64,000 nt of DNA from an uncultured Gammaproteobacteria bacterium (GTDB lineage Bacteria; Patescibacteriota; Microgenomatia; UBA10105; UBA927). Both the position numbers and the translations under genes were made by a program. The stretch is from assembly GCA_964361785.1 (NCBI GenBank), contig CAYIBX010000003.1:4769-68768 (forward strand). Reading direction: 5' to 3'. Of this stretch, positions 32,958 to 62,508 are shown piece by piece; positions within the stretch are counted from its first letter, which is position 1, and each line of letters begins with the position of its first letter. Below the pieces are notes generated by a model. The model did no database searches, had not been told where the DNA came from, and was given only the letters and a program-made list of their open reading frames with translations.

Positions 32958-32979
32958 CTGTCTCCTTGCCCCACTTTTT

Positions 32980-42189: not shown

Positions 42190-42313
42190 ATAACCATTGT
42201 AGGAATGGATGTGACATGTGACAAGGGGCACAAAGCGCATCAGGACCGTGAAAACTCGTATTTTAATGTTTCACGAACACGGAGAATTTTTTCACGTATG
42301 ATAAGATAGATGC

Positions 42314-45705: not shown

Positions 45706-48700
45706 ATGGCAGGAGAAGAATTATCCAGAAGAATTGCTGAGGCTGCGAAAAAAGCAGCAGAGCAAGCTACGCAACAAAAGGCTGAGCAGCCACAACCTGT
45801 CGAAAACGCTCCCACAGAAAATGCAGCACCAAACGATGTGCATGAAGTACCTGCCGAGCGCATGGTTGAATTTACCAATAAAGTGACACAAGGTGTGCCA
45901 GAAGCTGCGCAAAAAATAATTGGAGCAGGTGAGTATCCCAAAGATGAGCGCGTGTTTTCTATCGTCGAGTCGCTTCTTGTGGCAGACGAGGCGATGCTTT
46001 CAGACAGCGCATACATGCGTACGATTGGAGAGAAACTAGCGACCGTTGTAAACGAGACAGGATACTTTAGCGACACAGGGGTTGAAGCACGTAAATATCT
46101 TAATCGTATTATTGCAGAAAATCCAAGTTTGGAGGATCTGCGTTTACGAGCCATGCCGGAGGTTTCTGGAGTATCTGGGTTACAAGATCAACCCGAAGAA
46201 TTATCAGGGGTCACTGACCCAGAGTATAAAGAAGTAGTTAAACAGCTTTACGACGAGCCAAACGAATCAATTCTTAAGGACACTTCTATTGGGAAAGAAC
46301 TGCAGAATTTGCAGTTTAGGTTAGAAGTTGATCCTAATTCCTTGTTTCGCGATCAGCACATGATTGACGGTGTGGTGACGCGGATGGTGATAGCGGGGCA
46401 GAAAGATGGCCTTGACGCGAAAATTGTACGTGAAGGGGTGAATAGAGCACGGGCGCTTGAAGCATGGGTGGGTGAGAGGTTGGAGGCGGAAGATACGCGA
46501 GGCATTATCAGATGGTCAGAAGTGAAAAATGATGCACCTAAAGGGGTTGAGCATGTTGATAATCAAGCATTTATGTTTCGAGACATTACTAAAGATGAAA
46601 TAGATAAGTATTTCAAACGAGGCGCCGAGGGAGAAGCAGACTGGTACTTTAACTTTATAGATCAAATTTATTCATTGGGGAGAGAAGAGTCGCGACCCGG
46701 CTTAACGCACGAGCAGCGTTTTCAAGAGTTTAAAGATTATCTAGTGTGGAAGTATGGCGACGAGTATCATTTGGCAGTCCAGCTGTATCAAAAACATTGG
46801 GACAGCCGTGGTCAGTTTGAGTACGCGGTAAAAGGCTTGATGTATAACCCTGGTGACGTAAAAGATCGTTTGAAAGCCATGTCGCTTTTGACTGGCGCAG
46901 ACCTAGACCATTTATACAAAAATTTTAATAACTCAAACGTTGCTTATAGTTTGTACGAAGGCGTCATGTTTGAGACGATGGCAGAAAAGCGTAGAAAGTA
47001 TGGAGAAGCAATTAAATATTTAGGCGAAGAGGTGACGTGGGACAAAAAACATATTAAAAGAGAGGATTTGCTTAAAGAATTAAAGAGTAAACACCGAGAA
47101 GAGGGGTTTGATCCCGAGACGGGCAAAAGGACGCAGAGCTCATTGTCTGTCGAAGACCAAAAGCTCATGTTTGAAATTCAACATCAAAACGATTTGGCGG
47201 CAGAGGGCGTAATGCTTTGGGACGATGACGTGCAAAGTTACACAGAAATGCACATAACGCTTTCCAAGCTACAGACTGAACGTGAGGGTCTTATGAAGAA
47301 AAAAAATTCAGGTGAGCCGCTTTCGGAAAAAGAAATGGATCAACTGCATGAAGTAGATAGGAAATATCAAATATATGCACATCGCGAACACATGCTCAAC
47401 GAAAATTTTACTCAAGAGTTGTTACAGACAAGAGGCTTGTCTCCCGTTGATATAGAAGTTCGCAAACGTCTCACTGAGTACTACAAAAGCACGCATAGTG
47501 GACAAGAACCGCCAGAGTATGAAGTGCGTATGGCGTTGTGGGCCGCTCGTACCGCCATGATTGGGTCAGGACGCATGGCAATGATTGGGTCCATGATGTC
47601 TATAGGGCCTCGTGAGTCTGGATACACATCTTCATCAGGCAAGGACGTTATGCGCGCACCGGCATTTGAAGATTTGCAGCGCATTTTTAATCCGGAAGTG
47701 TTTGCCTCTCGTTTTAGTATTGGTGGCGATTTTGGGAAAGTAGCACGGCAAGTGTTCAGAAAGAATTTGTTAAACACCAAGGGTATAGATGAGAAAAAGC
47801 AGGGATGGCTTAAAAAAACATGGAATGGATTGTTTAGTGGTGGAGAAGAGTCGCACGGGAAATTGAGTTATACGAAAGAATGGGGACATGCTAAAGAGCA
47901 TGAGCACGATGCCGCAAGGCGAGCCGCCATGGAAACAGCAGAATTTGCAGAAGACGCAAGCGGGATATCGTTTAGTGAATTGCTCGGCCCTGGGTTTATG
48001 AACTCGGGAGGATTTTACGATGGTACGGGATGGCGGTTAGAAAAAGGAGTGTTTGATGAATTGCGAAATAAAGTGATGGACATGAGAAAGCTGCCTGAAG
48101 GAGCGACACTTCTGGATAACCAAGCGCTCTCCATTCAGTTGTTGACGGCTAGTAACGCCGAAGAGCGTAGACCAATACTTGATCGGATGCTTAGAAGAAA
48201 CCCATCAAAATTCTTGGAGCTTTTGCAAGAAGATTCAGAAAAAATATTACAAAAGCATAATGTGACGCATGAAGAGTGGGGACAGTTTAAAGAAGCATTA
48301 TCTTTGGCTGAATTAAAGATAGCACATGAAAAAGAATGGCAGTTCGTCAGAATTGATATGGCAGACAAGAAAGATTACGATGCTCTTATTGCTCCATTTT
48401 TAAAAACCTTGGGACTTGAAGATATAGGACGCCAAGAAAATTTACGTCAAGTGTTGGTCGACATGCAGTCGGTACTGTATGAAAAACGAACAGTTGAGAC
48501 TGGAGGCGGGAAGGTGTTTCACACAAAAATGGATGCAGTCGCTGAATTAAAGCTCCCATTGACTATGTCCATGACAGATTTTGATTGGAAGGAAAGTAAC
48601 TTTTATCAATTAGGAACAGTCGCAATGCATCGTAGAATTCGTGATGTAGGATCTCAAATGCGCGCGCGCGACGCAATTTTGGGCATTATATCCAATCAAG

Positions 48701-49311
48701 AAATGGTGCTTTCACCCGTTGACTACTCAAAGACACTTGAAAAGTTTCGGGAAGTGAGGGAGGCGATTATAGACTATTCCGGCGCAGACGCGGCTGAGGC
48801 GACGGTGAAAGAGTTAGCCCGCGTCTTTTTGGAGATGAACAGACACAAGCACATAAATCTCGAGTGGATACCATTTGATTTGGGAACGAAAGCTTTTAAA
48901 GAAATGGCTGAGTGGGATTTGCGATGGTTGAAAAATGCATGGATTTTAACACCATTTAAGCTTGCCGCTGGGAAAGAGCGGTGGAATAAATTAATGGATG
49001 ATAAGGTGATGCACTGGCCACATTCATTCGGTGAATACATATCATATGCAGTGCGTTACACAGGCAGCCATGCCAATGCCTATGATGAGGCGAAAATGGA
49101 AGAGATTATTTCCGGCATGGAACAAATGGGTTTATTTATCAATCACCATGAGTATGGACATGATTTGCGAAACGAGTTTAAGACGCGTTTAGGGTTTCGG
49201 TTGTGGAGCCAAGTACGTAAATATTGGTTTGTGCTTTTTGCAATCACCGTTGCTACTGCTGCCACGCAGGCAGTGACAGAAGAAGGTAAAAAGGATGGAG
49301 GAGGACATTAA
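45706..49311 (+). CDS. very large (1201 aa) hypothetical protein with a C-terminal transmembrane anchor, inside the T4SS-like locus
   Basis: Single uninterrupted ORF. It has an acidic/Lys-rich helical N-terminus, the motif 'HHEYGH' near the C-terminus and a final hydrophobic segment 'YWFVLFAITVATAATQA'. No known domain was recognised. Confidence 0.55.
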   Translation: MAGEELSRRIAEAAKKAAEQATQQKAEQPQPVENAPTENAAPNDVHEVPAERMVEFTNKVTQGVPEAAQKIIGAGEYPKDERVFSIVESLLVADEAMLSDSAYMRTIGEKLATVVNETGYFSDTGVEARKYLNRIIAENPSLEDLRLRAMPEVSGVSGLQDQPEELSGVTDPEYKEVVKQLYDEPNESILKDTSIGKELQNLQFRLEVDPNSLFRDQHMIDGVVTRMVIAGQKDGLDAKIVREGVNRARALEAWVGERLEAEDTRGIIRWSEVKNDAPKGVEHVDNQAFMFRDITKDEIDKYFKRGAEGEADWYFNFIDQIYSLGREESRPGLTHEQRFQEFKDYLVWKYGDEYHLAVQLYQKHWDSRGQFEYAVKGLMYNPGDVKDRLKAMSLLTGADLDHLYKNFNNSNVAYSLYEGVMFETMAEKRRKYGEAIKYLGEEVTWDKKHIKREDLLKELKSKHREEGFDPETGKRTQSSLSVEDQKLMFEIQHQNDLAAEGVMLWDDDVQSYTEMHITLSKLQTEREGLMKKKNSGEPLSEKEMDQLHEVDRKYQIYAHREHMLNENFTQELLQTRGLSPVDIEVRKRLTEYYKSTHSGQEPPEYEVRMALWAARTAMIGSGRMAMIGSMMSIGPRESGYTSSSGKDVMRAPAFEDLQRIFNPEVFASRFSIGGDFGKVARQVFRKNLLNTKGIDEKKQGWLKKTWNGLFSGGEESHGKLSYTKEWGHAKEHEHDAARRAAMETAEFAEDASGISFSELLGPGFMNSGGFYDGTGWRLEKGVFDELRNKVMDMRKLPEGATLLDNQALSIQLLTASNAEERRPILDRMLRRNPSKFLELLQEDSEKILQKHNVTHEEWGQFKEALSLAELKIAHEKEWQFVRIDMADKKDYDALIAPFLKTLGLEDIGRQENLRQVLVDMQSVLYEKRTVETGGGKVFHTKMDAVAELKLPLTMSMTDFDWKESNFYQLGTVAMHRRIRDVGSQMRARDAILGIISNQEMVLSPVDYSKTLEKFREVREAIIDYSGADAAEATVKELARVFLEMNRHKHINLEWIPFDLGTKAFKEMAEWDLRWLKNAWILTPFKLAAGKERWNKLMDDKVMHWPHSFGEYISYAVRYTGSHANAYDEAKMEEIISGMEQMGLFINHHEYGHDLRNEFKTRLGFRLWSQVRKYWFVLFAITVATAATQAVTEEGKKDGGGH

Positions 49312-49317: not shown

Positions 49318-50925
49318 TTAGTGCTCTTCACCCTGTCCTTCGCCGGTGAGCGCCCCAAATCCTTGTTGTGAGCCTTTTCTGACGACTTGTGAAGGGGATG
49401 CCCCGTGCCCCTTGCTTCCAAACATGCTTTTGATCATACTTCCTTGATACCAGATATTCATAAGAGATCCTGCGCCTTGACCAAGAGGCCCAAACATGGC
49501 GCCAAGGCCTCCTGGGATTGCTGGTTCTGCCTTCATAGATTTTTGAATACCAGCAACAAACGTTGGAATGATAAGAATCATGCCAAGTCCTATAATTCCC
49601 GCCATCCCGTAACTACCCCCCCCTGATGATAATAGCGGAGGCGCCCAAATAGTGGCTGCGTTATCAGTGTATGTGAGAATAGCAGACACCAAAAGAAGAA
49701 TAATCGTGATCGGAAACACGATGAGCTTTGATACTAAATGTCGAAGCCATGAGTTAAATGATGTAGATCCTGGAATTGCTTCTAGAACGAGCTGAAATGG
49801 TGCGGTCAGAAGGGCAATAATGATGTTTATATACGCATCAATGAGCATGAAGAGGATGCGAATAAATCCAAACAGGAGCACGAGTAAAATAATGAGAATT
49901 AAAAGCACAGGACCGCTAAAAAGAGAAAGTCCTAGAAGAGCGCCCTTGGTTCCTCCAATAAAGGCACCAAGAAGACCAGGGATGATAAAAGAGAGCTTTT
50001 GTACAACTGGATTTGTACCCCCAAACACGTCTCCAATATCATTCCATGCACCTAAGCCACTGCCAAAGAAAAATCGTGTAAATCCCCAGAATCCACCACT
50101 GAATAAATAATCGGTTGCTTCTTTGGTCGTCCATGTCAAGTTAACAGGCTGTCCTGAAAGATAGTTTGGTATTGCAGCAGCTTTGCACACACTACTAGAG
50201 ACGCTGAGCGCTTTCCCAATGCTATCACCGATAGAGCTGTTGGCAATCATGGAGATGGCTAGGGCAATAAGAAGATACATACCGTCTATAAGAAGCCCGA
50301 CAATTGCGTAGGAAAATGTGACCAGAAGCAGGGCTACAACTATACGGGGGATTGAGTTTTGTACCGTGACGACAGTTTTGGGGTCAATTTTTTTGCGAAA
50401 CATAACCATGAGTCCAACCATGATGAGAATGACTGCCAGTATTCCATACGAGATGTCTCGAAATACTTTCCAGAGAGGAAGCAGTGTGGCAAGGCCCGAA
50501 AATCCTATGCCCTGTGCGTTGACACGAGGTGTTACAAATCCTAATGACCGACCAATGTCCATGGCATATTCAGCGGTAGACGCAGGGGGGTTGGTATAGA
50601 TTGCTGTAATAGACCCACCAATGCCGCTGAGCGCACCTTTTTGGAAATTAAGAGCTGTTGGACACTGTGCGTCTGTCGTGTCCCATGCGCCACCAATCAT
50701 GATGGATAACGCGTTGATGCTATTATTGGTGGTCGCAAAATTTGATCCTTCTAAATTCAGGGTCCCCTCATTTGATTTTTTGAGTACTTGGGTAAAACAC
50801 GACATTGATTGACCAATCCACGAGCATTCTTCGTTTTCTAGTGCTAAAACAGAAAAGATAGGATAACTTACGGCAAGAAATGTTAAAAAGAGCGCCGTAA
50901 TAAGATATTGTATTGTTTTTTTCAT
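49318..50925 (-). CDS. VirB6/TrbL-like polytopic inner-membrane T4SS protein
   Basis: 535-aa ORF with a signal or transmembrane segment, a ~130-aa extracytoplasmic loop, at least six transmembrane helices and a Gly-rich C-terminus. It lies immediately downstream of the pilin array. Confidence 0.55.
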   Translation of the reverse strand: MKKTIQYLITALFLTFLAVSYPIFSVLALENEECSWIGQSMSCFTQVLKKSNEGTLNLEGSNFATTNNSINALSIMIGGAWDTTDAQCPTALNFQKGALSGIGGSITAIYTNPPASTAEYAMDIGRSLGFVTPRVNAQGIGFSGLATLLPLWKVFRDISYGILAVILIMVGLMVMFRKKIDPKTVVTVQNSIPRIVVALLLVTFSYAIVGLLIDGMYLLIALAISMIANSSIGDSIGKALSVSSSVCKAAAIPNYLSGQPVNLTWTTKEATDYLFSGGFWGFTRFFFGSGLGAWNDIGDVFGGTNPVVQKLSFIIPGLLGAFIGGTKGALLGLSLFSGPVLLILIILLVLLFGFIRILFMLIDAYINIIIALLTAPFQLVLEAIPGSTSFNSWLRHLVSKLIVFPITIILLLVSAILTYTDNAATIWAPPLLSSGGGSYGMAGIIGLGMILIIPTFVAGIQKSMKAEPAIPGGLGAMFGPLGQGAGSLMNIWYQGSMIKSMFGSKGHGASPSQVVRKGSQQGFGALTGEGQGEEH

Positions 50926-50977: not shown

Positions 50978-51310
50978 TTATTGAAATTCAGGGACGGTAA
51001 ATGTGGTGATGCTCTCAATTCCTGTAAATCTGCCGATAAGATTTATAATAAGATACGCCGCAGACATGATGATAAGTCCCATAATGGCTTGGCTTATAGT
51101 GCCTCGTGCCTGTTCGAGCTTTTTAGGGTCCCCTGATGAGAAGAGAAAGTTAAATCCACCGACCAAGAGCATAAGAAAGAGCGCAATGCCCCCAAACGCA
51201 ACTACCGCCCTCACGATGTTTTCAAAGAGCGGGCCAAGACAAGAAAGTGTCGCTACGTCCTCAGAGTTTGGTACGCCTTTAGCAAAACAAGCAGTATCCC
51301 ATGCAGCCAT
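50978..51310 (-). CDS. VirB2/TrbC-like pilin paralog 1
   Basis: Two-helix hydrophobic protein containing 'LLVGGFNFLFSSGDPKKLEQARGTISQAIMGLIIM', which shares the family motif GGF..TSGGD.KL..A...I..A..GL. Confidence 0.6.
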   Translation of the reverse strand: MAAWDTACFAKGVPNSEDVATLSCLGPLFENIVRAVVAFGGIALFLMLLVGGFNFLFSSGDPKKLEQARGTISQAIMGLIIMSAAYLIINLIGRFTGIESITTFTVPEFQ

Positions 51311-51329
51311 AAAGAGAGTATATCAAAAA

Positions 51330-51662
51330 TTAGTACGGCTTGGGGAAGTTTAAGCTTCCGCCGATGATCTGCACGCCCAAGAAGTTTTGGACGAGATTCA
51401 TGATGGCCCATGCAGCTCCTACGATGATAAGACCAACAATTGCATGGGTAATTTTATTTCTGGCTTCTTCCATGCCTGCCTTGTCGCCGCCAGAGGTAAT
51501 CCACTTTATGCCACCCAGCAGTAAATATAAGAAAGCCAAAAGTGAAGCGATGATAAGCGTCGTGCCGACAAGCGCTGAAATAAGCTGACCAATGTCAGTA
51601 ATTTTGACGACATCTGTAGGCTGTTTGATTTCGAGTTTCGCTTGCGCAAATATTTTTTCCAT
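51330..51662 (-). CDS. VirB2/TrbC-like pilin paralog 2
   Basis: 'LLLGGIKWITSGGDKAGMEEARNKITHAIVGLIIV'. Confidence 0.6.
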   Translation of the reverse strand: MEKIFAQAKLEIKQPTDVVKITDIGQLISALVGTTLIIASLLAFLYLLLGGIKWITSGGDKAGMEEARNKITHAIVGLIIVGAAWAIMNLVQNFLGVQIIGGSLNFPKPY

Positions 51663-51739
51663 AGATGTAATTATATCCTACTTACCATTCTTGCGCAAGA
51701 AATTGATCCTTGTCAAGGACCATCGTTAGTATAGGCACA

Positions 51740-52087
51740 TTAGCTTCCAACGGTGGGAATAGGAATGTTTGGAAAATCAATGCCAATAAATTGGCTGACC
51801 AATGTAGTGATAGCCCAGACCGTGCCGACGATGATAAGGCCTACTAACGCGTTGGTAATTTTGTCTCTAGCCGATGTAAGTTTTGTTTTATCCCCTCCTG
51901 ATGTAATCCAATCAAATCCGCCCAGAAGTAAATAGAGAAAAGCGATGATAAAACAAAGTATCATGATAGCCCCTATTACACCGCCCAATACTGCTCCGAG
52001 AGCAGAAGCGCCAGCTTCTGTGCCGCCGCTTCCAAGACTGCCAGGGAGAACGGGGTTTGTAATTTGTGTGAGCAAACGATTGGTCAT
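51740..52087 (-). CDS. VirB2/TrbC-like pilin paralog 3
   Basis: 'LLLGGFDWITSGGDKTKLTSARDKITNALVGLIIV'. Confidence 0.6.
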   Translation of the reverse strand: MTNRLLTQITNPVLPGSLGSGGTEAGASALGAVLGGVIGAIMILCFIIAFLYLLLGGFDWITSGGDKTKLTSARDKITNALVGLIIVGTVWAITTLVSQFIGIDFPNIPIPTVGS

Positions 52088-52092
52088 AGTGT

Positions 52093-52464
52093 TTATTGTG
52101 AGAGAGAATCCATAATGCCACCAGGATTTGATAGTGTGAAATCGACACCAAAGAATTGACCAGCAAGAGAAAGTATTGCCCAGCCTACAACCACGACAAG
52201 AAGACCAATAAGTGAGTTTGTTATCCGGTCGCGAGCTGATTGCAGCTTGGCTTTATCGCCTCCTGATGTGATCCAGTTAAATCCGCCGATAAGAAATTGA
52301 AAAATAAACCATATAAATCCTGAGATGGTCATGAAGCCTATTATGGAAGAAACGAGTCGCGATATGTTTATAAGGCCTTCGGTGCCGTCGGAGACATTGG
52401 CAAATGGACCGAGCCCACCGCCTTCACCGATTCGCCCTAATTCTTGTGCAAATATTGTTTTCAT
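52093..52464 (-). CDS. VirB2/TrbC-like pilin paralog 4
   Basis: 'FLIGGFNWITSGGDKAKLQSARDRITNSLIGLLVV'. Confidence 0.6.
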   Translation of the reverse strand: MKTIFAQELGRIGEGGGLGPFANVSDGTEGLINISRLVSSIIGFMTISGFIWFIFQFLIGGFNWITSGGDKAKLQSARDRITNSLIGLLVVVVGWAILSLAGQFFGVDFTLSNPGGIMDSLSQ

Positions 52465-52466
52465 TA

Positions 52467-52823
52467 TTATGGACTGACTATTTTCGGATTGAGTATAAAC
52501 GTTGCGTCATTAAAGAGAAGTTTTCCCACCACAGCCGCGAGAGCAAAAGACCCCACGATCACGACAAGTCCTAATAGCGAATTCCAAATTTTATCCCACG
52601 CAGAGTTTAGTGCCTTTGTGTCTCCGCCAGCGTTCATATATTGAAAGCCTGCGATAATAAAATTAAAGAGCGCTAAAATACCGCCCCCTACAAATACAAG
52701 GCGTAATATATTTGTGATAAGCAGTCCAAATCCACCGAAAACATTTGCGTAACCGCCGATTAAAGGGCTGGTGACCGATCCTACTATGTCATCTTCTGCA
52801 AAGATGCGTTCTATAAGCGTCAT
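52467..52823 (-). CDS. VirB2/TrbC-like pilin paralog 5 (divergent)
   Basis: 'FIIAGFQYMNAGGDTKALNSAWDKIWNSLLGLVVI'. Confidence 0.55.
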   Translation of the reverse strand: MTLIERIFAEDDIVGSVTSPLIGGYANVFGGFGLLITNILRLVFVGGGILALFNFIIAGFQYMNAGGDTKALNSAWDKIWNSLLGLVVIVGSFALAAVVGKLLFNDATFILNPKIVSP

Positions 52824-52827
52824 ATCG

Positions 52828-53133
52828 TTATGGTATCACAGGGTTTAATATCTGGATACCAGTGAGCGTTTCTATAAGTTGTATTATCCAAAATGATGCA
52901 AAAATAAGAAGGAGCCCAACAACGGCTCCTGTGAGCGCCGCTTTTCCTTTTTCTGCGTGTTTAGGGTTGCCAGCGGAAGTGATGATTTGAAATCCGCCAA
53001 AGACGATCATAAACAATGTTACTACCCCAGCGATTACAAATACGTTTGACACAATGACTTTTACAAATCCGCCAAACGTTGTTATGGTGGAGGGGGAAAG
53101 CTCTGAGAGTTCGACTGCGTGTACAATGTTCAT
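52828..53133 (-). CDS. VirB2/TrbC-like pilin paralog 6 (divergent)
   Basis: 'VFGGFQIITSAGNPKHAEKGKAALTGAVVGLLLI'. Confidence 0.55.
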   Translation of the reverse strand: MNIVHAVELSELSPSTITTFGGFVKVIVSNVFVIAGVVTLFMIVFGGFQIITSAGNPKHAEKGKAALTGAVVGLLLIFASFWIIQLIETLTGIQILNPVIP

Positions 53134-53187
53134 ATTTTAAGTGTACGAAAACTCGCACAGAATCTCAAGATCTTGTATACTCACCGC

Positions 53188-53727
53188 ATGGACGACGTCA
53201 CCCTCGTTTCTCAGCTTCTTAAAAAGGATCGTCGCAGCGCTGGCATCTTTTACCAGACGTACGCGCCGAAGATTAAAAGGTACGTGCATGCAAAGGTAGG
53301 AGTATACGAAGACGCAGAAGATTTGGTGCAAGATATTCTTTTTTCGTTTCTTGAGGCTGCTCGTGATTTTCGTGGGAATAGCAGTATACAGACATACCTT
53401 TACTCTATAGCACATCACAAAGTGATTGATTATTATCGTAAGAAAAAAATTAAACAACTCGTGTTTTCTCAAATGCCACAATTGGAATCGTTGATTTCTC
53501 CGCTTCTTGATCCACAAGCGCAGCTTGATGCGACACTGGTGAGTGAAAAGATACAGCACGCGTTGGGAACATTGCTCCCCATTCATCGCACTGTGTTGCT
53601 TCTCAAATACCTTGACGATGTTTCAGTATCGGGTATAGCAAAGCAGTTGTCCATAACGCTCAAAAGCGCTGAGTCACGATTGTTTCGTGCACGACGAGCC
53701 TTTGTAGCATCATTTCTTTCGTTATAA
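53188..53727 (+). CDS. ECF-type RNA polymerase sigma-70 factor
   Basis: Region 2 'EDLVQDILFSFLEAARDFRG...TYLYSIAHHKVIDYYRKK' and region 4 'IHRTVLLLKYLDDVSVSGIAKQLSITLKSAESRLFRAR'. Confidence 0.8.
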   Translation: MDDVTLVSQLLKKDRRSAGIFYQTYAPKIKRYVHAKVGVYEDAEDLVQDILFSFLEAARDFRGNSSIQTYLYSIAHHKVIDYYRKKKIKQLVFSQMPQLESLISPLLDPQAQLDATLVSEKIQHALGTLLPIHRTVLLLKYLDDVSVSGIAKQLSITLKSAESRLFRARRAFVASFLSL

Positions 53728-53728
53728 T

Positions 53729-53959
53729 ATGGCAGATCTTTTGTTTACAAATTTTATGAAACGTTGGGAAGAGGTGACTGAATTACCACCCCAACAGTTT
53801 GGCAGGCTTACCAATGTATATAAGATGGTGACTGGACGCATAAAAACTATGCCATGGCTTGCTTTTTTTGGCGTGAGTTCGCTTGTGGTTGGTTCTGTGT
53901 ACTTCTTTTTAGGTTCAACGATTGTGTGGATAGTCTCACTTTTGCAAAAAGGATTTTAA
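53729..53959 (+). CDS. small membrane protein, putative anti-sigma factor partner
   Basis: 76-aa ORF starting 2 nt after the sigma-factor stop, with a single transmembrane helix 'LAFFGVSSLVVGSVYFFL'. Confidence 0.4.
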   Translation: MADLLFTNFMKRWEEVTELPPQQFGRLTNVYKMVTGRIKTMPWLAFFGVSSLVVGSVYFFLGSTIVWIVSLLQKGF

Positions 53960-54001
53960 CTTCTCTCCGCGGGTTTTAGCCCGCATTTACGACTAGTATA
54001 T

Positions 54002-54619
54002 ATGCTCGTTGCGCTCCTTCAATCAGGTTTTGCGTTTTTTCGTCACTTTGTGGGAATTATCATTTCGCCCTACGAGACCTATAGGGATATCGAAAAACGT
54101 GGTCGTATAGGAGAGATGGTGTATATCGGTCTTTTAGTTGGGCTGTATTTTTCTCTTTCAAGTGTGGTAAAAATAGCTTCATTTCACCCATTACTTCTTT
54201 CTCGGTACGCATTCGTATTATTCGCTTCAGCACTGAGTGGATTTGGGCTCATCGTTTCAGTGCTGGTTTTGACTGGGCGATTATTAGGGCGACAGACAAG
54301 TATCGGACGCATAAGTCTTTTGTGGGCGTATACGCTTGTGCCGACGGTTGTATGGTTTTTATGTACGTCACTTTTATATATATTTATTCCTCCACCTAGA
54401 ACCACCAATATCTCTGGAGTAGCCTTAAGCATCGTGTACCTTGTTGTTTCAGCAATGATTTTTTGGTGGAAATTGACGCTTTCGTATCTTGCGTTGCGGT
54501 TTGGTTTGAAGCTTGATTTTAGCAAAATTTTGATTTTCGTTTTGGTTTCAGTACCCATACTTATTCTATGGTCATACATGATGTATGCCATTGGCATATA
54601 TAAGGTACCATTTTTATGA
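54002..54619 (+). CDS. Yip1-like polytopic membrane protein
   Basis: 205-aa ORF with five transmembrane segments and an N-terminal 'SPYETYRDI' resembling Yip1/DUF1282. Confidence 0.4.
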   Translation: MLVALLQSGFAFFRHFVGIIISPYETYRDIEKRGRIGEMVYIGLLVGLYFSLSSVVKIASFHPLLLSRYAFVLFASALSGFGLIVSVLVLTGRLLGRQTSIGRISLLWAYTLVPTVVWFLCTSLLYIFIPPPRTTNISGVALSIVYLVVSAMIFWWKLTLSYLALRFGLKLDFSKILIFVLVSVPILILWSYMMYAIGIYKVPFL

Positions 54620-55755
54620 AATTGCGATCAGCACTATCAGTAAAATCTCGTCGCGAAGAAGTAGAGAAAGAGACTCGTGTATTGTTAACCAACATTGGGA
54701 CGTTTAGCGTCGATGAGAATGTGGCGAGCAAAAGAAATTGTGAAAACATGATTGGCGTCGCTCAAGTGCCGTTGGGTATTGCAGGACCCCTCGCACTGTT
54801 AACTGTTAAAGGTGAATTGTTAAATGTTTATCTTCCTCTCGCAACGACTGAAGGAGCGTTGGTGGCGTCGGTTAGTCGCGGCTGCAAGGCGATAACGGAG
54901 TCTGGAGGAGCAGGTGTAGATAGTTACCGTGTTGGGGCCACCCGCGGTCCGGTTTTTAAGGTCAAGAATTTGCATGAAAGCGATGTATTTAATAAATTTT
55001 TGGAAGAACACTTCGAGAGTTTGCAAAAAATTACAAAGACAACCTCAAACCACTTAACACTTACAAAATATATGGATCGCGGAGTCGGTCGGTATAGATA
55101 TGTACGATTTGTGTTTGACACAGAAGACGCCATGGGCATGAACATGGTAACAATTGCGACACAAAAACTAGTTGAATATATTGAGCTCCATACGTCTTCA
55201 CGATGTATTTCCTTGGCGGGAAATTACGACGTCGACAAAAAACCTTCGTGGCTCAATGTTATTGAAGGACGAGGTATAAAAGCGTGGGCGGAGGTGACGC
55301 TTCCGTCAAAAATACTCAAAGACGTTTTAAAAACGACTGCTCAAAAATTTTATGACGTGTGGCTTTCAAAGTGCATGATTGGCAGTGCCATGGCAGGATC
55401 GATGGCATTTAATGCCCAGTTTGCAAATATAATTGCTGCCGTATTTTTAGCGACGGGACAGGATCTTGGGCATGTGGGCGAGGCAAGCTTGGGTGTGACA
55501 ACCGCTGAGGTAGTGAATGGAAAAGACTTATATGTAAGTATATATCTTCCTGATCTTATGGTAGGTATCGTGGGTGGAGGCACAGGCCTTGCAACACAGA
55601 AAGAGGCGTTATCGATTGTGAGAGCCGCAAATAGTAAACAATTTGCTGAAATAATTGCAGGTGCGGTGCTAGCAGGAGAAATTTCATTATTAGCGTCGCT
55701 TAGTGAGGGGACGTTAGCAAAAGCACATCAAGAACTAGCAAGAGGAAAGAGATAA
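54616..55755 (+). CDS. hmgA: HMG-CoA reductase, class I (archaeal-type)
   Basis: 'ENMIGVAQVPLGIAGPL', 'EGALVASVSRGCKAI' and 'DAMGMNMV' are conserved HMGR motifs. Confidence 0.85.
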   Translation: MKLRSALSVKSRREEVEKETRVLLTNIGTFSVDENVASKRNCENMIGVAQVPLGIAGPLALLTVKGELLNVYLPLATTEGALVASVSRGCKAITESGGAGVDSYRVGATRGPVFKVKNLHESDVFNKFLEEHFESLQKITKTTSNHLTLTKYMDRGVGRYRYVRFVFDTEDAMGMNMVTIATQKLVEYIELHTSSRCISLAGNYDVDKKPSWLNVIEGRGIKAWAEVTLPSKILKDVLKTTAQKFYDVWLSKCMIGSAMAGSMAFNAQFANIIAAVFLATGQDLGHVGEASLGVTTAEVVNGKDLYVSIYLPDLMVGIVGGGTGLATQKEALSIVRAANSKQFAEIIAGAVLAGEISLLASLSEGTLAKAHQELARGKR

Positions 55756-55756
55756 T

Positions 55757-56800
55757 ATGATCGGCATCATTTCATACGGCACATATATTCCTTTGTATCG
55801 TTTAGCAGTAGCAGAGATTGCAAAAGCGTGGCACAAAGAAGCGAAAGAAATAGAACAAGCGCTTGGGGTTATAGAAAAGGCCGTGCCATCCTATGATGAA
55901 GACGCGGTGACCATTGCAACTGAAGCTGCGCTTTCAGCGTATAGGAATACTATTGTTAAGCCAGAAGACACAGATGTTTTATTAGTTGGTAGCGAAAGTC
56001 ATCCGTATGCCGTGAATCCAACGGCCACAATTGTAGGGGAATTTGTAGGGTTTAGCCATCAGTATTTAGCATCAGACATGCAATTTGCATGTAAAGCAGG
56101 AACTGCTGCTGTGCAATCGATTGCAGGCTTGGTTTCTGCAGGACATGCGCGAACTGGTCTAGCTATTGGAGCAGATACTGCACAGAGTAAACCTCACGAT
56201 GTACTTGAGTACGCTTCTGCCGCTGGTGGAGCGGCGTTCCTTATTGGTAAAGAAAATCTTGTAGTAGAGATGTTGGCGGACACATCGTTTTCATCTGACA
56301 CTCCAGATTTTTGGCGACGTGATGGCATACGTTATCCGTCGCACGCTGGGCGATTTACCGGAGAACCTGCATATTTTACGCATGTGATGGGAGCCGCAAG
56401 ACAATTATTGAATATGTCGAAATTGAACCCCAAAGATTTTAAGTATTGCGTGTTTCACATGCCAAACGGAAAATTTCCTCGGGATGTTGCCAAGCGTTTA
56501 GGATTTACCGACAGTCAACTTGTTCCCTCGCTTATTGTTGAGTCTATCGGCAACTCGTATAGCGCTACAGCACTTTTAGGATTAGCAGCGGTTTTGGATA
56601 TCGCAAAGCCAAATGAGAAGATATTTATGGTGTCGTATGGATCAGGGGCTGGAAGTGACGGATTTATTTTTCGCGCGACAAAAGCACTTCCAGCTTTGCA
56701 AAAAAAACGGCTGGTCTCACACGATCGGGTGATTGATCATATCAATCGTCGTATGCCGATTGACTATCTGACGTATTTACAAAAGACTCATAAAATATGA
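55757..56800 (+). CDS. HMG-CoA synthase (archaeal-type, DUF35-partnered)
   Basis: Thiolase-fold condensing enzyme whose N-terminus 'IGIISYGTYIPLYRL' is typical of archaeal HMGCS. It lies between hmgA and a thiolase gene. Confidence 0.75.
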   Translation: MIGIISYGTYIPLYRLAVAEIAKAWHKEAKEIEQALGVIEKAVPSYDEDAVTIATEAALSAYRNTIVKPEDTDVLLVGSESHPYAVNPTATIVGEFVGFSHQYLASDMQFACKAGTAAVQSIAGLVSAGHARTGLAIGADTAQSKPHDVLEYASAAGGAAFLIGKENLVVEMLADTSFSSDTPDFWRRDGIRYPSHAGRFTGEPAYFTHVMGAARQLLNMSKLNPKDFKYCVFHMPNGKFPRDVAKRLGFTDSQLVPSLIVESIGNSYSATALLGLAAVLDIAKPNEKIFMVSYGSGAGSDGFIFRATKALPALQKKRLVSHDRVIDHINRRMPIDYLTYLQKTHKI

Positions 56801-57945
56801 AACCAGTTATATCAGTTATTGGTGTTGCTACGACACAATTTGGAGAATTGTGGGGCGTGTCACCGCGTCGATTGGCACAAGACGCAGTTACGAGAGCGCT
56901 TCACGACGCGAATATACAACATTCTGCTGTGCAAGCGCTGTTTGTGGGAAACATGCTTTCAGGGATGCTTGGCGGTCAAGAACACTTAGGCGCTTTTTTT
57001 GCGGATGAACTTCATATGTTAGTTCCTGCGTTTAAAATTGAAGGCGCGTGTGCATCAGGGGGACTTTCAGTGCATGCAGCGGTCAACGCATTAATGTCTG
57101 GCCAGTATGAGACAGTATTAGTATTGGGAGTAGAGAAGATGACGGATCATAAACCAGAAGACGTGGCGACTGCCCTTATGGGAGCTGGATCAGACGAAGA
57201 GCGCACGGCGGGAATGACATTTCCAGGATTATATGCGTTGCTTTCGAGCATGCATATGGAAGAATACGGTACGACGTTAGAGCAGTTAGCATCTGTAGCG
57301 GTGAAAAATCATTATCACGCAACTCTCAATCCTAATGCACAGTTTCATAATACGATTACCGTCGAACAGGTGTTAAAAAGCACGTGTATAGCAGATCCGT
57401 TGCGACTTTTGGATTGTTCACCAATTTCTGATGGGGCTTCGGCTGTGATTCTTACGACAGTTCCTAATAACGCCGTTAGAATACTTGCGTCAACCGTTGG
57501 CACAGATTCATTAGGTCTTGCGCGGAGGAAGAGCCTTACCAGCTTGCAGGCGACAAAAGATGCCGCTAATCGCGCGTACACGCTTGCAAAAGTCAAACCG
57601 TCTGACGTCGATGTAGCAGAAGTGCATGATTGCTTTACGATTGCAGAAATATTAGCGATGGAAGATTTGGGATTTTTTGCCAAAGGAAAGGCGGCCGCGG
57701 CAATTGAAAGAGGAGAGACGAGACTTGGGACATCAAAACATTTAGTGGTCAATCCGTCAGGAGGGCTCAAAGGTTGTGGTCATCCGGTGGGGGCAACGGG
57801 TGTCAAACAGATTGTAGAGCTGGTTGAGCAGTTGCGCGGTGTAGCTGGCGCGCGTCAAGTGAAAAATGCAAAAATTGGATTAGCACAAAATGTAGGAGGA
57901 AGCGGTGCAACGGCTGTTGTACACATATTATGCAATCACCAGTGA
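56797..57945 (+). CDS. acetyl-CoA acetyltransferase (thiolase, archaeal-type)
   Basis: Active-site cysteine motif 'GACASGGLSVHAAVNALMSG' and a C-terminal 'GHPVGATG'. Confidence 0.8.
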   Translation: MKPVISVIGVATTQFGELWGVSPRRLAQDAVTRALHDANIQHSAVQALFVGNMLSGMLGGQEHLGAFFADELHMLVPAFKIEGACASGGLSVHAAVNALMSGQYETVLVLGVEKMTDHKPEDVATALMGAGSDEERTAGMTFPGLYALLSSMHMEEYGTTLEQLASVAVKNHYHATLNPNAQFHNTITVEQVLKSTCIADPLRLLDCSPISDGASAVILTTVPNNAVRILASTVGTDSLGLARRKSLTSLQATKDAANRAYTLAKVKPSDVDVAEVHDCFTIAEILAMEDLGFFAKGKAAAAIERGETRLGTSKHLVVNPSGGLKGCGHPVGATGVKQIVELVEQLRGVAGARQVKNAKIGLAQNVGGSGATAVVHILCNHQ

Positions 57946-58238
57946 AATTATGGAGAAATCAAAAGTCGACCACGAACTTGGTGGGGCTTTTGGGCACAGT
58001 GGAAACATGGACCATTGTTCGCGTACCACCTGCAGGATTTTCTGATCAAGCACCGTATGCAGTTGTTTTGGTTCGGTTAAAGTCCGGCCAATCTATAGAA
58101 GCGCAGTTGGTGGATTCGTATAAAGACGGTCAAATTGATGTGTATAAAGACATGAACGTACGAACTGTTATTCGCCGCATCACACATCCAGATAGTGATG
58201 GTGTGATATCATATGGAATTAAGGTGAAACCCATATGA
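57930..58238 (+). CDS. DUF35 OB-fold scaffold protein of the thiolase/HMGCS complex
   Basis: 102-aa OB-fold-like ORF that overlaps the thiolase stop, in the conserved archaeal gene order. Confidence 0.6.
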   Translation: MQSPVKLWRNQKSTTNLVGLLGTVETWTIVRVPPAGFSDQAPYAVVLVRLKSGQSIEAQLVDSYKDGQIDVYKDMNVRTVIRRITHPDSDGVISYGIKVKPI

Positions 58239-59194
58239 AAAAAGTTGTTGTAACAGTTCCAGGAAAAGTACACCTTATGGGAGAGCATGCGGTTGTGTAT
58301 GGTAAGCCTGCGCTTCTTGCGGCAATAAATCTTCGACTGTCGGTAACCATTGAAGAACAACTCAAAAAATCTTCAACACCAGAAAAAATAATCATTATGT
58401 CTACCGAACCCACAGAACACGCGCGCTACGCAGTAGATTTTTTACTCGATCAGTTTAAGGTGAAAGATCCTACAGCATTTAAAATCATCATTGATTCGCA
58501 GATTCCTGCTGGGTTTCATCTAGGCTCATCTGCTGCGGTAGCCGTAGGATTATCGGGCGCGATGATGTATTTTTTCAAAAAATTATGGAATCCTATACGG
58601 ATAAACGAACTCGCGTATGAAATCGAAAAAAAACAACATGGAAATCCATCAGGTGGAGATAACACAACCGTTACTGTTGGAGGATTTGTATGGTTTAGAA
58701 AAGAATTGGAATTTTTAAAAAGTATTTGGCAGCTTCCATTTAAGCCACATGAATCTCTCAATCATTTTTTTCTTATTAACACCGGTCGACCCAAAGAAAC
58801 CACAGGCGAAATGGTTGCAATGGTCAAAGAACACATACAAAAAGAACCAGAGCAAATGCAAAAATTATTGAATCTCAATGAGATTCAGGTGAAGCGTGTC
58901 ACTGTCGCACTGAAAGAAGGCAACGAGGCAGAGTTATTGGATGCGATGAAAGTTGGCGAGCGGACGCTTGAGGGGATGGGAGTGGTTAGTCAAAAAGCTA
59001 TTCCTCTCATTCGAAAAATAGAAGAAGCAGGGGGTGCAGCGAAAATTCTTGGAGGAGGGGGAAAAGAAGAAGGAGTAGGGTTTTTGCTCTGTTATCATCG
59101 CAATCCCACTCAAGTAGAGGAAATTTGTAAATCGTATGGATTTACTATACAGGAGATTGGACTCGGGGAAGAAGGAGTGAGACTAGAAAAATAG
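58235..59194 (+). CDS. mvk: mevalonate kinase (GHMP family)
   Basis: 'VPGKVHLMGEHAVVYG' and 'PAGFHLGSSAAVAV' are GHMP motifs 1 and 2. Confidence 0.8.
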   Translation: MKKVVVTVPGKVHLMGEHAVVYGKPALLAAINLRLSVTIEEQLKKSSTPEKIIIMSTEPTEHARYAVDFLLDQFKVKDPTAFKIIIDSQIPAGFHLGSSAAVAVGLSGAMMYFFKKLWNPIRINELAYEIEKKQHGNPSGGDNTTVTVGGFVWFRKELEFLKSIWQLPFKPHESLNHFFLINTGRPKETTGEMVAMVKEHIQKEPEQMQKLLNLNEIQVKRVTVALKEGNEAELLDAMKVGERTLEGMGVVSQKAIPLIRKIEEAGGAAKILGGGGKEEGVGFLLCYHRNPTQVEEICKSYGFTIQEIGLGEEGVRLEK

Positions 59195-59197
59195 TTA

Positions 59198-59500
59198 TTG
59201 AAAGGAGATATACCAAATATGTCTAATATGGTAGATAGACCTACAGAAGAAGTACTTGCAGATTTGCAAAAATATGCCCAGGAGAATGAATGGTTTGCTA
59301 GTGGATTGAAGAAACATGGAAATGAATTGACCCAGGAATGGCTAACTCGTCGAGCTGAACAATACGCATTTAAGGGGCATCGCGTATTGAGAAAGCTTGT
59401 TCCGTCTGTAGCCAATCACTGGAGAACAGCGCACGAGCGGACAATTTTAAATGCACTCTGTGTTGTAACAGGCGTTTCAGACAAATCAGCAAAGTCATAA
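59198..59500 (+). CDS. hypothetical small protein embedded in the mevalonate operon
   Basis: 100-aa ORF with a GGAG ribosome-binding site. No homolog was recognised. Confidence 0.4.
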   Translation: MKGDIPNMSNMVDRPTEEVLADLQKYAQENEWFASGLKKHGNELTQEWLTRRAEQYAFKGHRVLRKLVPSVANHWRTAHERTILNALCVVTGVSDKSAKS

Positions 59501-59509
59501 GTTTCCTCC

Positions 59510-60481
59510 ATGAAAAAAATAACTGTGTCTGCTCCCGGCAAGCTCATGTTGTTTGGCGAGCATGCGGTAGTCTATAACCGGTCGTGTTTGGTAACTGCTG
59601 TTGATCAGCGGATGAAGGCAACGGTAGAAATTACCGATGACAACATGTTCTGCCTTGATGCTCCGGAAGTAGACATTGCGGGATACCAAAAGCCGATGGA
59701 CTGTTTGGGAACAGGCGAGATTCCTAGTGGTGCAAAATTCGTTGAATTTGCAGTTAAAAATTTTATTGAGAAATACCCATTGACGTACGGGGTCAAGGTG
59801 ACCACAGCATCAGATTTTTCATCGCAGTTTGGATTCGGATCGTCTTCTGCTTCTACTGTTTGTGTGTTGAAGGCATTATCGGAATTATCAGGAAAAAAAT
59901 TGGATAATAAAAAACTATTTGATCTTTCGTATAAAACAGTTTTAGATATTCAAGGTAAAGGATCGGGGTTTGATGTGGCAGCAGCTATTTATGGTGGGAC
60001 TCTGTATTTTGTGACAGGCGGAAAAGTTATAGAGCCATTAACAATAAACGAAATATCCTTGGTCATTGGGTATACGGGCATAAAAGCGGATACGGTAACG
60101 ATAATGGCCTCAGTTTTTGAAAAGATGAAGGCACAACCAGAACGAGTGGAGAGAATCTATGACGCGATAGAAAAACTTACTGAAGATGCAAAGATAAAAA
60201 TGCTCGAAGGAGACTGGGAACGTGTTGGAAAGTTTATGGATTTTAATCAGGAATATTTGCGCGATCTTGGAGTAAGTAGTGAAAAGTTAGAGGCGCTTAT
60301 TGTCGCAGCCAAACAAGCGGGTGCATTGGGCGCAAAACTTTCGGGCGCTGGGGGAGGCGACTGTATGATTGCGCTTGTAACCAATGACACAAAAAAAGCT
60401 GTTGAAGATGCGATAGAAAAGGTAGGTGGGCAAGTGCTGCCTCTTTCTATTAATGCTGCTGGTGTAAGGAGTGAGGTATGA
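59510..60481 (+). CDS. second GHMP kinase, putative phosphomevalonate kinase (or MVK-like paralog)
   Basis: 'APGKLMLFGEHAVVY', 'GFGSSSASTVCV' and 'SGAGGGDCMIAL'. Confidence 0.65.
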   Translation: MKKITVSAPGKLMLFGEHAVVYNRSCLVTAVDQRMKATVEITDDNMFCLDAPEVDIAGYQKPMDCLGTGEIPSGAKFVEFAVKNFIEKYPLTYGVKVTTASDFSSQFGFGSSSASTVCVLKALSELSGKKLDNKKLFDLSYKTVLDIQGKGSGFDVAAAIYGGTLYFVTGGKVIEPLTINEISLVIGYTGIKADTVTIMASVFEKMKAQPERVERIYDAIEKLTEDAKIKMLEGDWERVGKFMDFNQEYLRDLGVSSEKLEALIVAAKQAGALGAKLSGAGGGDCMIALVTNDTKKAVEDAIEKVGGQVLPLSINAAGVRSEV

Positions 60482-61422
60482 AAGCGACGGCAGTAGCACC
60501 GGCAAACATTGCATTTATCAAATACTGGGGGAAAAAGGATGCGAGCCGTCAAATTCCACGCAATTCATCTATTTCTATGAATCTGTCGGCGTGTACAACG
60601 ACAACAACTGTAGAATTCTCAAAAGATTTTTCTACAGACACGATTTCAGAAGGATTTGATGCACAACGGATTATTAAACATATTGATCGATTACGGAGTC
60701 TTGTTGGGATAAATGAACGAGTTTGTGTCGCAACATCAAATAATTTTCCAGCTTCTTCTGGGATTGCCTCATCTGCTTCAGGGTTTGCGGCTTTAACAAT
60801 TGCTGCTACTGCGGCACTTCATTTAAATCTCTCAGAGAAAGAATTATCAGCGCTAGCCCGATTAGGAAGCGGATCGGCATGCAGGAGTATTCCTGATGGA
60901 TTTGTGAAATGGGACGGAGAATTTGCACATTCGCTGTATCCAGCTGATTATTGGGATCTTTGTGATATTGTGGCAATCGTTGAGAAAGCGAAGAAAAAAG
61001 TTTCGTCATCAAAAGGCCACGAAGCAGTAGAAACGAGCCCATTTTTCAAACAACGTCTGGATGCAATACCAAAAAGAATTCACAAGATCGAGTTGGCATT
61101 TCAAAAGAAAAATTTTCAATCGTTAGGCGAGATTATAGAAGAAGATTGCTTGGATATGCATCACGTGATGCAAACACAAACGCCTCCACTTATGTATTGG
61201 AACGATGCGACGAAACGTATTATGGAAGCAGTGAGAGATTGGAGAAAAAATGGCTTGTCGGTTTATTTTACGATTGACGCCGGACCAAATGTTCATTTGA
61301 TTTGTGAAGGAAAAGATGAGGCACGCGTTATTGAATCTTTAAAAAATATCAGTGGGGTAGAAGAAATTATTCTCAATAAACCGAGTAAGGGAGCACAGAT
61401 AGTTTCTACGCACCTATTTTAG
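60478..61422 (+). CDS. mvaD: diphospho-/phospho-mevalonate decarboxylase family enzyme
   Basis: 'PANIAFIKYWGKKD' is the MVD signature. The 314-aa length is short for the family. Confidence 0.75.
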   Translation: MKATAVAPANIAFIKYWGKKDASRQIPRNSSISMNLSACTTTTTVEFSKDFSTDTISEGFDAQRIIKHIDRLRSLVGINERVCVATSNNFPASSGIASSASGFAALTIAATAALHLNLSEKELSALARLGSGSACRSIPDGFVKWDGEFAHSLYPADYWDLCDIVAIVEKAKKKVSSSKGHEAVETSPFFKQRLDAIPKRIHKIELAFQKKNFQSLGEIIEEDCLDMHHVMQTQTPPLMYWNDATKRIMEAVRDWRKNGLSVYFTIDAGPNVHLICEGKDEARVIESLKNISGVEEIILNKPSKGAQIVSTHLF

Positions 61423-61432: not shown

Positions 61433-61470
61433 TATATTAGCATGCTAACATGTTAGCATGCTAATATTCT
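61433..61470. repeat. ~36-bp perfect palindrome containing two copies of the self-complementary 12-mer TTAGCATGCTAA
   Basis: 'ATATTAGCATGCTAACATGTTAGCATGCTAATAT' is centred at 61450/61451. It is flanked by a direct repeat TATATGAATA and lies between mvaD and uppS. Confidence 0.8.
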
Positions 61471-62170: not shown

Positions 62171-62503
62171 TTAGAGAAATGATTGTTCAATAGAATTCCA
62201 ACCAAAAATTATTCCCAAAAGCTGTACCATCCAATAGGCGGCAAAAATGAGGAAAAATCCAATTAAGGCATTCATTAAACGACCCTTTCCTGCCTCAAGT
62301 TGTTTTGGGTTACCAGCGGAGGTGAGCATAGTAAATCCGGAAGAGACAATCATCAAGAGTAATCCAAATCCCGCAAACGCGAATATATACGGAATTGCTG
62401 CTTGGACTATCTGACCAATTTTAGCATCAGCAAATGCAAATCCTGCGGGTCCTTCTACGGTATAGGATCCTATGTTTACTGATTGTGCAACTACCTTTTC
62501 CAT
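62171..62503 (-). CDS. VirB2/TrbC-like pilin paralog 7
   Basis: 'VSSGFTMLTSAGNPKQLEAGKGRLMNALIGFFLI'. Confidence 0.55.
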   Translation of the reverse strand: MEKVVAQSVNIGSYTVEGPAGFAFADAKIGQIVQAAIPYIFAFAGFGLLLMIVSSGFTMLTSAGNPKQLEAGKGRLMNALIGFFLIFAAYWMVQLLGIIFGWNSIEQSFL

Positions 62504-62508
62504 ACGCG

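Follow-up and report, generated by a model that had tools for sequence, protein, structure and literature searches.

A conserved sigma factor gene module with a probable role in isoprenoid supply in a Gottesmanbacteria-like genome

The closest described counterpart of the locus analyzed here is the sigM-yhdL-yhdK system of Bacillus subtilis, which senses undecaprenyl-phosphate levels and controls ispD and ispF (PMC11081497). The authors of that study expected analogous pathways elsewhere, YhdLK-SigM itself being confined to Bacillus relatives (PMC11081497). Our subject is a gene for a sigma factor of the extracytoplasmic function (ECF) type, together with the gene for a 76-amino-acid (aa) membrane protein directly behind it and the gene for a Yip1-like membrane protein (yip1), in a 64,000-nucleotide stretch of contig CAYIBX010000003.1 (the “window”; all coordinates are positions within it). 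As in sigM-yhdL-yhdK, the three genes encode an ECF sigma, a single-pass membrane partner (the candidate anti-sigma) and a small polytopic membrane protein, and there is a link to lipid-carrier or isoprenoid supply. The likeness is one of function and not of family membership: the window sigma scores below the SigM cutoff, its 76-aa partner is without a YhdL-like domain, and the third gene is Yip1-like rather than YhdK. The apparent target also differs, being a whole mevalonate operon and not recycling or peptidoglycan genes, as does the promoter, whose -35 triplet is GGG or TGA and not AAC.

CnrH-CnrY represents the short “class II” type of anti-sigma system, in which the membrane-anchored partner is very short. 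If the 76-aa protein acts in the same way, a short N-terminal helical segment would contact sigma without the canonical four-helix anti-sigma domain; there is, however, no sequence similarity, and no periplasmic CnrX equivalent was seen. Myxococcus CarQ-CarR and Streptomyces LitS are light-responsive ECF sigma systems that activate carotenoid genes. The resemblance here would be that of an ECF sigma and a membrane anti-sigma controlling isoprenoid metabolism genes, but those systems control genes for pigment end products, whereas the target in the window would be the core precursor pathway of a minimal-genome bacterium. The genomes of bacteria of the candidate phyla radiation (CPR) are tiny, regulators are very few in them, and hardly anything is known of how these bacteria control transcription. 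A literature search for ECF sigmas in Patescibacteria or CPR bacteria, or for ECF sigmas linked to mevalonate, found nothing relevant beyond the carotenoid systems. From gene order and conserved promoter sequences, we consider it rather probable that the locus is an ECF sigma/mini-anti-sigma/Yip1-like module regulating isoprenoid (lipid-carrier) supply.

The main comparison set consisted of 80 genome loci around sigma homologs with 43–91% identity. A more distant set comprised sigmas with 33–41% identity from Microgenomates outside Gottesmanbacteria (L161, L162, L164, L166, L167, L168 and the P0088 contig). The closest sigma homologs (at most 91% identity) and the related loci all come from metagenome-assembled genomes of Gottesmanbacteria or Patescibacteria, and the window genome is Candidatus Gottesmanbacteria-like (Patescibacteria/CPR). 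A further 80 metagenome loci centred on virD4 were collected, of which 51 orthologous loci were used for a site test. The position weight matrix (PWM) for the motif upstream of yip1 was built without the window sequence, and matches of at least 14 bits are reported. It was searched against the whole 64-kb window and the 80 related loci (∼2.6 Mb counting both strands); the DNA covered by motif scans is that around sigma and around virD4.

The sigma factor and its 76-aa partner

The sigma gene occupies positions 53188–53727 of the forward strand and encodes a protein of 179 aa. Its only Pfam domains are Sigma70_r2 (PF04542, 2.1e-16) and Sigma70_r4_2 (PF08281, 7.5e-12), it scores 82 bits against TIGR02937 (sigma70-ECF, cutoff 42.9), and no housekeeping-type region 1 or 3 was found in it. 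With sigma2 and sigma4 domains only and a length within ∼170–200 aa, it has the make-up of ECF group 4. Homologs numbered 132 at E ≤ 1e-10. The start is settled as ATG 53188 by the homologs, which are 179 aa long and whose alignment begins at Met1; a longer open reading frame (ORF) from GTG 53119 was rejected for this reason. When the family profile was compared with solved structures, only ECF sigmas were retrieved (SigW at 5.8e-16, CnrH as PDB 4cxf, RpoE, SigH and SigL). The protein is a true ECF sigma, as an earlier note made from the sequence alone had proposed; the housekeeping-like relationship which that note had named as evidence against its proposal was not found among the profile relatives. 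The best NCBIfam match is the SigM subfamily model (TIGR02950), at 87.5 bits against a cutoff of 147.95, a score that places the protein outside the subfamily.

Two distances given in the note require correction. Sigma is indeed transcribed divergently from the first gene of a pilin array, but the spacer between them (53134–53187) is 54 bp and not 55 bp, and the 76-aa ORF does lie immediately behind sigma, but with one spacer nucleotide instead of two.

The gene for the 76-aa protein (53729–53959, forward strand) is conserved in this position. A homolog directly follows sigma in 79 of the 80 loci, and in the 80th the contig ends first. In 22 loci it overlaps sigma by an ATGA (a distance of -4 nt), and in most the distance is ∼8 nt or less. 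Family members share the motifs WEEV..LPPQ..G..T..YK....K.mP, then a transmembrane (TM) helix and then a C-terminal LLQRGF. In distant lineages the same place after sigma is occupied by a protein of 60–77 aa whose N-terminal helix is charged and which has one TM helix, and the next gene there encodes a shorter Yip1-like membrane protein that shares an N-terminal HPY..R motif. The AlphaFold model of the window protein (monomer, 17 homologs in the alignment; mean predicted local distance difference test score, pLDDT, 80.8) contains helices at residues 2–17 and 25–40 and a long hydrophobic helix at 42–73. This is consistent with a protein that crosses the membrane once: a cytoplasmic part of ∼41 residues with the two short helices, then the TM helix.

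Because of the conserved translational coupling and this architecture, the protein is read as a probable minimal anti-sigma factor of a new family that would bind sigma. The sigma/anti-sigma arrangement claimed in the earlier note is plausible, in that the pair is conserved and coupled and the partner has a single membrane helix, but there is no match to any known anti-sigma domain. A class I anti-sigma domain (ASD, zf-HC2 or RskA, ∼80 aa) was matched in Pfam or NCBIfam neither by the window protein nor by 39 members of its family.

The lack of a detectable anti-sigma domain, together with a cytoplasmic part of only ∼41 residues, would also suit a protein that is not an anti-sigma: an unrelated small membrane protein, for instance a SecE-like helper or a subunit acting with the Yip1-like protein, that is merely co-transcribed while sigma is controlled in another way. 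The best PDB profile match of the family points in the same direction, being a weak, local SecE-like stretch (TxxYKxVxxxLKxxxWP plus TM, in short KVxWP plus TM; E = 0.5). Pfam SecE, however, was matched by none of the 39 family members, and SecE identity was rejected on that ground and because the match is local and reaches only E = 0.5; the stretch probably reflects convergent amphipathic-helix/TM architecture. A merely co-transcribed protein is also at odds with a gene that invariably follows sigma, frequently with a 4-nt overlap, among sigmas down to ∼35% identity, and with two short N-terminal helices plus a TM helix that resemble the short anti-sigma class of the CnrY type. We therefore give a role other than anti-sigma a small chance and retain the minimal anti-sigma as the probable reading.

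A conserved element upstream of yip1 and the isoprenoid genes

Downstream of the small gene, an ECF-like promoter element, GCGGGTTTT-N12-CGACTA (53969–53995, forward strand), was recognized by PWM and by its conservation upstream of yip1. Within it, GCGGGTTTT (53969–53977) would supply the -35 and a T-tract and CGACTA (53990–53995) the -10, with a 12-nt spacer between the two; another 6 nt separate CGACTA from the yip1 start codon (ATG 54002). The first gene behind the element, yip1 (54002–54619, forward strand), encodes a polytopic membrane protein with a Yip1 domain (PF04893, 1.9e-08). As third member of the conserved triad it is kept in 78 of the 80 loci, and the motif stands upstream of it in 63–64 of the 80 (64 with a strict pattern). 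The consensus, gcg.GGgTTTTagcc...tttT.CGACTAat, amounts to ∼27 bits. Its spacing is fixed at 12 nt from the T-run to CGAC, equivalent to 16 nt from the GGG triplet to CGAC, and CGACTA lies 6–10 nt before the yip1 ATG in 44 of 63 loci, the same geometry as at other leaderless promoters here. With the window-free PWM the window site scores 36.7 bits and is the top match in 64 kb. Away from recognised yip1 copies, the 80 loci yielded only two matches of at least 14 bits; one of them belongs to a yip1 gene whose start had been wrongly assigned, and the other lies directly upstream of the gene for HMG-CoA reductase (HMGR) in L069.

ECF promoters of B. subtilis have a CGAC -10 (as in the autoregulatory promoter of sigX), a T-tract by the -35, covering roughly -30 to -26, and a spacer of 14–17 bp (PMC5758882). 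The window element shares with the sigmaX/sigmaV-type promoters the CGAC -10, the homopolymeric T-tract next to the -35 and the short spacer (PMC5758882), but differs from them in a -35 triplet other than AAC and in the predicted leaderless transcript. When lineages having GGG as -35 triplet were set against those having TGA, the sigma4.2 helix showed no clear co-variation. In many relatives (among them L002, L015, L020, L024, L031 and L040) the -35 half is embedded in the end of the small gene, whose final codons are CAG CGC GGG TTT TAG (Q-R-G-F-stop). The window gene ends in CAA AAA GGA TTT TAA, and a separate -35 copy is found 10 nt downstream, at 53969–53977; as judged from the letters of the region 53945–53977, this copy looks like a short duplication.

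Some features of the element would allow it to be something other than the promoter of this sigma, such as a terminator or RNA hairpin at the end of the sigma operon, the site of another regulator or the promoter of another alternative sigma, with the real regulon lying elsewhere. The -35 is not AAC, a 6-bp hairpin (GCGGGU/GCCCGC) is possible in the first half of the window element, a GC-rich hairpin precedes the T-run in several loci, and the motif scan covered the collected loci, leaving room for a regulon elsewhere in the genome. A stem of at least 5 bp, however, is possible in only 8 of 63 loci, the mean minimum free energy equals that of shuffled sequence, the z-score of the window hairpin is -1.2, and there is no Rfam match in the region; the hairpin or terminator reading of GCGGGTTTT was rejected because the hairpin is not conserved. 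Several observations also count against the remaining variants. The two halves have a fixed spacing and stand 6–10 nt from the ATG like other leaderless promoters, and conserved sigma70-type hexamers are lacking at the element. It further occurs upstream of a divergent HMGR gene, where no upstream gene requires termination, and upstream of sigma itself in deep lineages. Taken together, these points make it unlikely in our view that the element is anything but a promoter for this sigma.

Behind yip1 lies a tightly packed mevalonate-pathway operon (54616–61422, forward strand; genes assigned by Pfam), with overlaps and gaps of -16 to +9 nt. Its order is HMGR (which overlaps yip1), HMG-CoA synthase, thiolase, an OB-fold partner, mevalonate kinase, a 100-aa ORF, phosphomevalonate kinase and diphosphomevalonate decarboxylase. 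The gene for undecaprenyl-diphosphate synthase (UppS; PF01255, 1.5e-72) follows 54 nt after the operon, at 61477–62169 of the forward strand, with a TTG start at 61477.

Throughout Gottesmanbacteria the whole region is collinear, so that synteny alone cannot discriminate between pilins and isoprenoid genes as the partners of sigma. Twelve deep-branching Gottesmanbacteria loci were compared; in 8 of these the small gene and yip1 abut (1–11 nt), and in the same 8 CGACT(A/T/C)A with a (G/C)ATGA(A/T)TT -35 is found upstream of sigma itself. On this sequence evidence, sigma, the small gene, yip1 and the genes from HMGR onward form one unit in these loci, in the classical autoregulated layout.

The arrangements outside Gottesmanbacteria are decisive. 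In the Levybacteria-type loci L161, L162, L166 and L167, the mevalonate operon is divergent from sigma, no pilins are nearby, and GAATGATTTtTTGAnTTTTTACGACTA lies upstream of HMGR on the HMGR strand. L164 has the motif (17.7 bits) before a 295-aa gene, which is followed by an AA_kinase (IPK-like) gene and then by UppS. Two motif copies are present in L168, one before a Nudix-like gene and one before Nudix(IDI-like)-IPK genes, with UppS downstream. The P0088 contig, for which gene order only is available, reads UppS-sigma-small-209aa-IspH-YjbQ-Dxr and so carries genes of the methylerythritol phosphate (MEP) pathway, not of the mevalonate pathway. The sigma module and its motif therefore accompany isoprenoid genes even where gene order, orientation or the pathway itself has changed.

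Two further observations concern the downstream end of the cluster. Just upstream of uppS are two tandem 12-bp palindromes, TTAGCATGCTAA, at 61437–61448 and 61453–61464, 4 nt apart. For this pair, 0.19 matches are expected by chance, and from its sequence the tandem looks like an operator for a dimeric regulator. Right after uppS come two more T4SS_pilin genes, coding for 110 and 162 aa (62171–62997, reverse strand), so that pilins flank the isoprenoid cluster on both sides; a pilin-isoprenoid-pilin sandwich is also present in the distant locus L164. TACACT stands 7 nt before the ATG of the upstream gene of this second pair. Conservation of the pair's promoter could not be followed, since start codons were not reliably assignable.

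The pilin array and its promoter

Six T4SS_pilin genes (PF18895; pil6 to pil1, 50978–53133, reverse strand) lie on the other side of sigma, with pil1, the first gene, at 52828–53133. Four of the six proteins exceed the PF18895 gathering threshold of 26.6 bits (30.6, 30.2, 40.0 and 35.6) and two fall just below it (22.4 and 23.2). Beyond the array are further genes of a type IV secretion system (T4SS)-like cluster next to the replication origin: a polytopic VirB6-like gene of 535 aa (49318–50925, reverse), a gene for a 1201-aa protein (45706–49311, forward), a VirD4-like coupling protein (42314–44488, forward), a PrgI-like gene (40942–42240, reverse) and a VirB4/TraG-type ATPase (38412–40403, reverse). 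The order of the pilin array and the VirB6-like gene is kept in ∼75 of the 80 related loci.

The earlier note had suggested that the pilin/T4SS array is controlled by envelope stress or host contact. In the corresponding model, such a signal frees the ECF sigma from its anti-sigma, and sigma itself then switches on the pilin genes on the opposite strand and the T4SS genes. The attraction of this model lies in gene order, as the array is divergent from and adjacent to sigma in ∼65 of the 80 Gottesmanbacteria loci and also in the P0088 contig and L164, and as the second pilin pair flanks the isoprenoid cluster. The promoter of the array does not fit it. In the window, a sigma70-type promoter on the reverse strand has a -35 TTGAGA (53168–53163), a 17-nt spacer and a -10 TACACT (53145–53140), with 6 nt to the pil1 ATG (53133), which predicts a leaderless mRNA. 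Upstream of pil1, TTGnnn-N17/18-TAnAnT is found in 59 of 78 loci (TTGACA in 33, TACACT in 47), and the -10 ends 6–7 nt before the ATG in 40. The conserved form, TTGACA-N17/18-TACACT, consists of sigma70-type hexamers; TTGACA-N17-TACACT also stands upstream of dnaN (34462–34490). Other pilin genes use different -10-like hexamers, TATAAT at pil5 and TATACT at pil6. Hexamers of this kind also precede other genes, and there is therefore no special motif common to the pilins. On this evidence a strong, conserved leaderless promoter of sigma70 type seems to drive the array constitutively. The upstream regions of tRNA genes, considered as housekeeping promoter references, were uninformative.

Searches for ECF-type sites before the pilin and T4SS genes gave the same picture. 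The note had proposed looking for AAC-N16-CGT; a search with AAC-N15-18-CGT gave no match in the window and, without a constant position, matches in only 3 of 78 regions before pil1 and 3 of 81 before sigma. No PWM match of at least 14 bits was found upstream of the pilin, VirB6-like or 1201-aa genes in the 80 loci. One window match of 21 bits did appear at 42347–42377 (reverse strand), ∼110 nt upstream of the prgI-like/VirB4 operon, and would favour T4SS control. It coincides, however, with the antisense of the conserved virD4 codons 12–21 (NSRDSEEKPL) and was rejected as a chance match: in the 51 orthologous loci, which include relatives with 90% and 87% identical VirD4-like proteins, the site scores at most 5.4 bits (median -12). 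No ECF-like motif was found near the virD4/prgI spacer in those 51 loci either.

Adjacency itself is not constant. A gene for a polyprenyl synthetase (PF00348, E values as low as 1e-53), with its own sigma70-type promoter, is inserted directly upstream of sigma, between pil1 and sigma, in 13 loci (L019, L020, L022, L030, L033, L034, L035, L040, L048, L057, L071, L072 and L076), and the pil1 and sigma promoters are both kept there; another isoprenoid gene thus clusters with sigma in these relatives. In L161, L162 and L166 the pilins are absent from the vicinity while sigma stays by the mevalonate genes. Direct control of the pilin and T4SS genes by this sigma is thus very unlikely, the ECF-like motif being found instead, within the DNA around sigma and virD4, before yip1 and the mevalonate genes, and the position of the pilins beside sigma is most likely inherited gene order.

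The promoter of sigma is likewise of housekeeping type, as read from sequence. Its -10, TATACT (53176–53181, forward strand), lies 6 nt before ATG 53188 and again predicts a leaderless transcript; upstream of sigma, 68 of 81 loci show a good -10 at most 32 nt before the ATG, 59 of them with an extended TG (TGnTATAGT). The core promoters of pilins and sigma overlap back-to-back at 53140–53181 within the 54-bp spacer, which could, as a matter of speculation, mean competition for RNA polymerase.

Leaderless-type -10 hexamers 6–9 nt before the start were also noted at an aminoacyl-tRNA synthetase gene, virD4, the 1201-aa gene, pil5 and pil6, and the genes with such placement include those starting at 15189, 42314, 45706, 51310, 51662, 53133, 53188 and 54002. 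Shine-Dalgarno-like motifs are rare throughout the window genome, and their absence at a given gene is hence not diagnostic. These hexamers and this rarity suggest that, in the window genome, promoter-proximal genes generally have leaderless mRNAs.

A few observations concern the remainder of the window. The VirD4-like protein is unusually conserved, its best 120 matches being 68–90% identical over the full length, far above sigma or the pilins. The divergent virD4/prgI spacer (42241–42313) contains an imperfect inverted repeat, CGTGAAAa ... GTTTCACG, which might be an operator; a strict 8-bp pattern search gave no exact match. A group I catalytic intron (Rfam RF00028, 63.2 bits against a gathering threshold of 50) was recognized at 12649–12860 of the forward strand, where it separates a 95-aa ORF from the 190-aa gene at 12981. 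A replication origin also lies inside the window, with dnaA at 32911–34341, dnaN at 34546–35652 and a flip of the GC skew near 35 kb.

A candidate circuit for lipid-carrier supply

In the mechanism we propose, sigma would be transcribed from its ordinary sigma70-type promoter as a leaderless mRNA and hence without autoregulation in the window organism. The 76-aa protein would sequester sigma at the membrane, possibly together with the Yip1-like protein, until a membrane or envelope signal, the nature of which we can only infer, frees it. Free sigma would then read GCGGGTTTT-N12-CGACTA at 53969–53995, if the assignment of the motif to this sigma is right, and yip1 and the whole mevalonate pathway, perhaps with uppS as well, would be transcribed as leaderless mRNA. 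The outcome would be a larger supply of isoprenoid precursors for the polyprenyl-phosphate lipid carrier.

Several points weigh against a module of this kind. The -35 triplet is GGG or TGA and not the usual AAC. Positive autoregulation is not seen in the window lineage: upstream of sigma, the window and most relatives carry a -10 of (extended) sigma70 type, and the CGACT motif stands there only in 8 of the 12 deep-branching loci. For the small protein, Pfam, NCBIfam and PDB gave no family match and no similarity to an anti-sigma domain was detectable, and the polyprenyl synthetase and uppS genes are without a copy of the motif. Pilins adjoin sigma in two further lineages as well (the P0088 contig and L164), and some functional tie between sigma and the pilins, or between pilus/T4SS biogenesis and carrier-lipid supply, is possible. 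Distant regulon members, T4SS genes included, may lie elsewhere in the genome, and another sigma encoded elsewhere could read the motif. With these points taken into account, we still hold regulation of isoprenoid supply by the sigma, its small partner and the Yip1-like protein to be rather probable.

A broader interpretation is more speculative, and we regard it as doubtful though worth stating. The triad of sigma, 76-aa protein and Yip1-like protein may be an unrecognised polyprenyl-phosphate homeostasis circuit of Microgenomates, a SigM-YhdLK analogue assembled from unrelated membrane parts, which would set isoprenoid precursor flux (through mevalonate or MEP, depending on the lineage) from a non-AAC ECF promoter. 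Its position between T4SS-pilin arrays would then reflect a coupling of surface-appendage biogenesis to carrier-lipid supply in episymbiont-like bacteria.

The analysis corrects the tempting inference that T4SS-like pilins, which are thought to be important for the episymbiotic lifestyle, are under stress control by this sigma. The promoter motifs defined here are concrete sequences that can be tested in heterologous assays. If the regulatory reading is true, the module would provide one of the first inferred regulons in bacteria of the candidate phyla radiation, and it would extend a recent proposal, according to which ECF signalling lets bacteria keep track of their scarce pool of undecaprenyl-phosphate.

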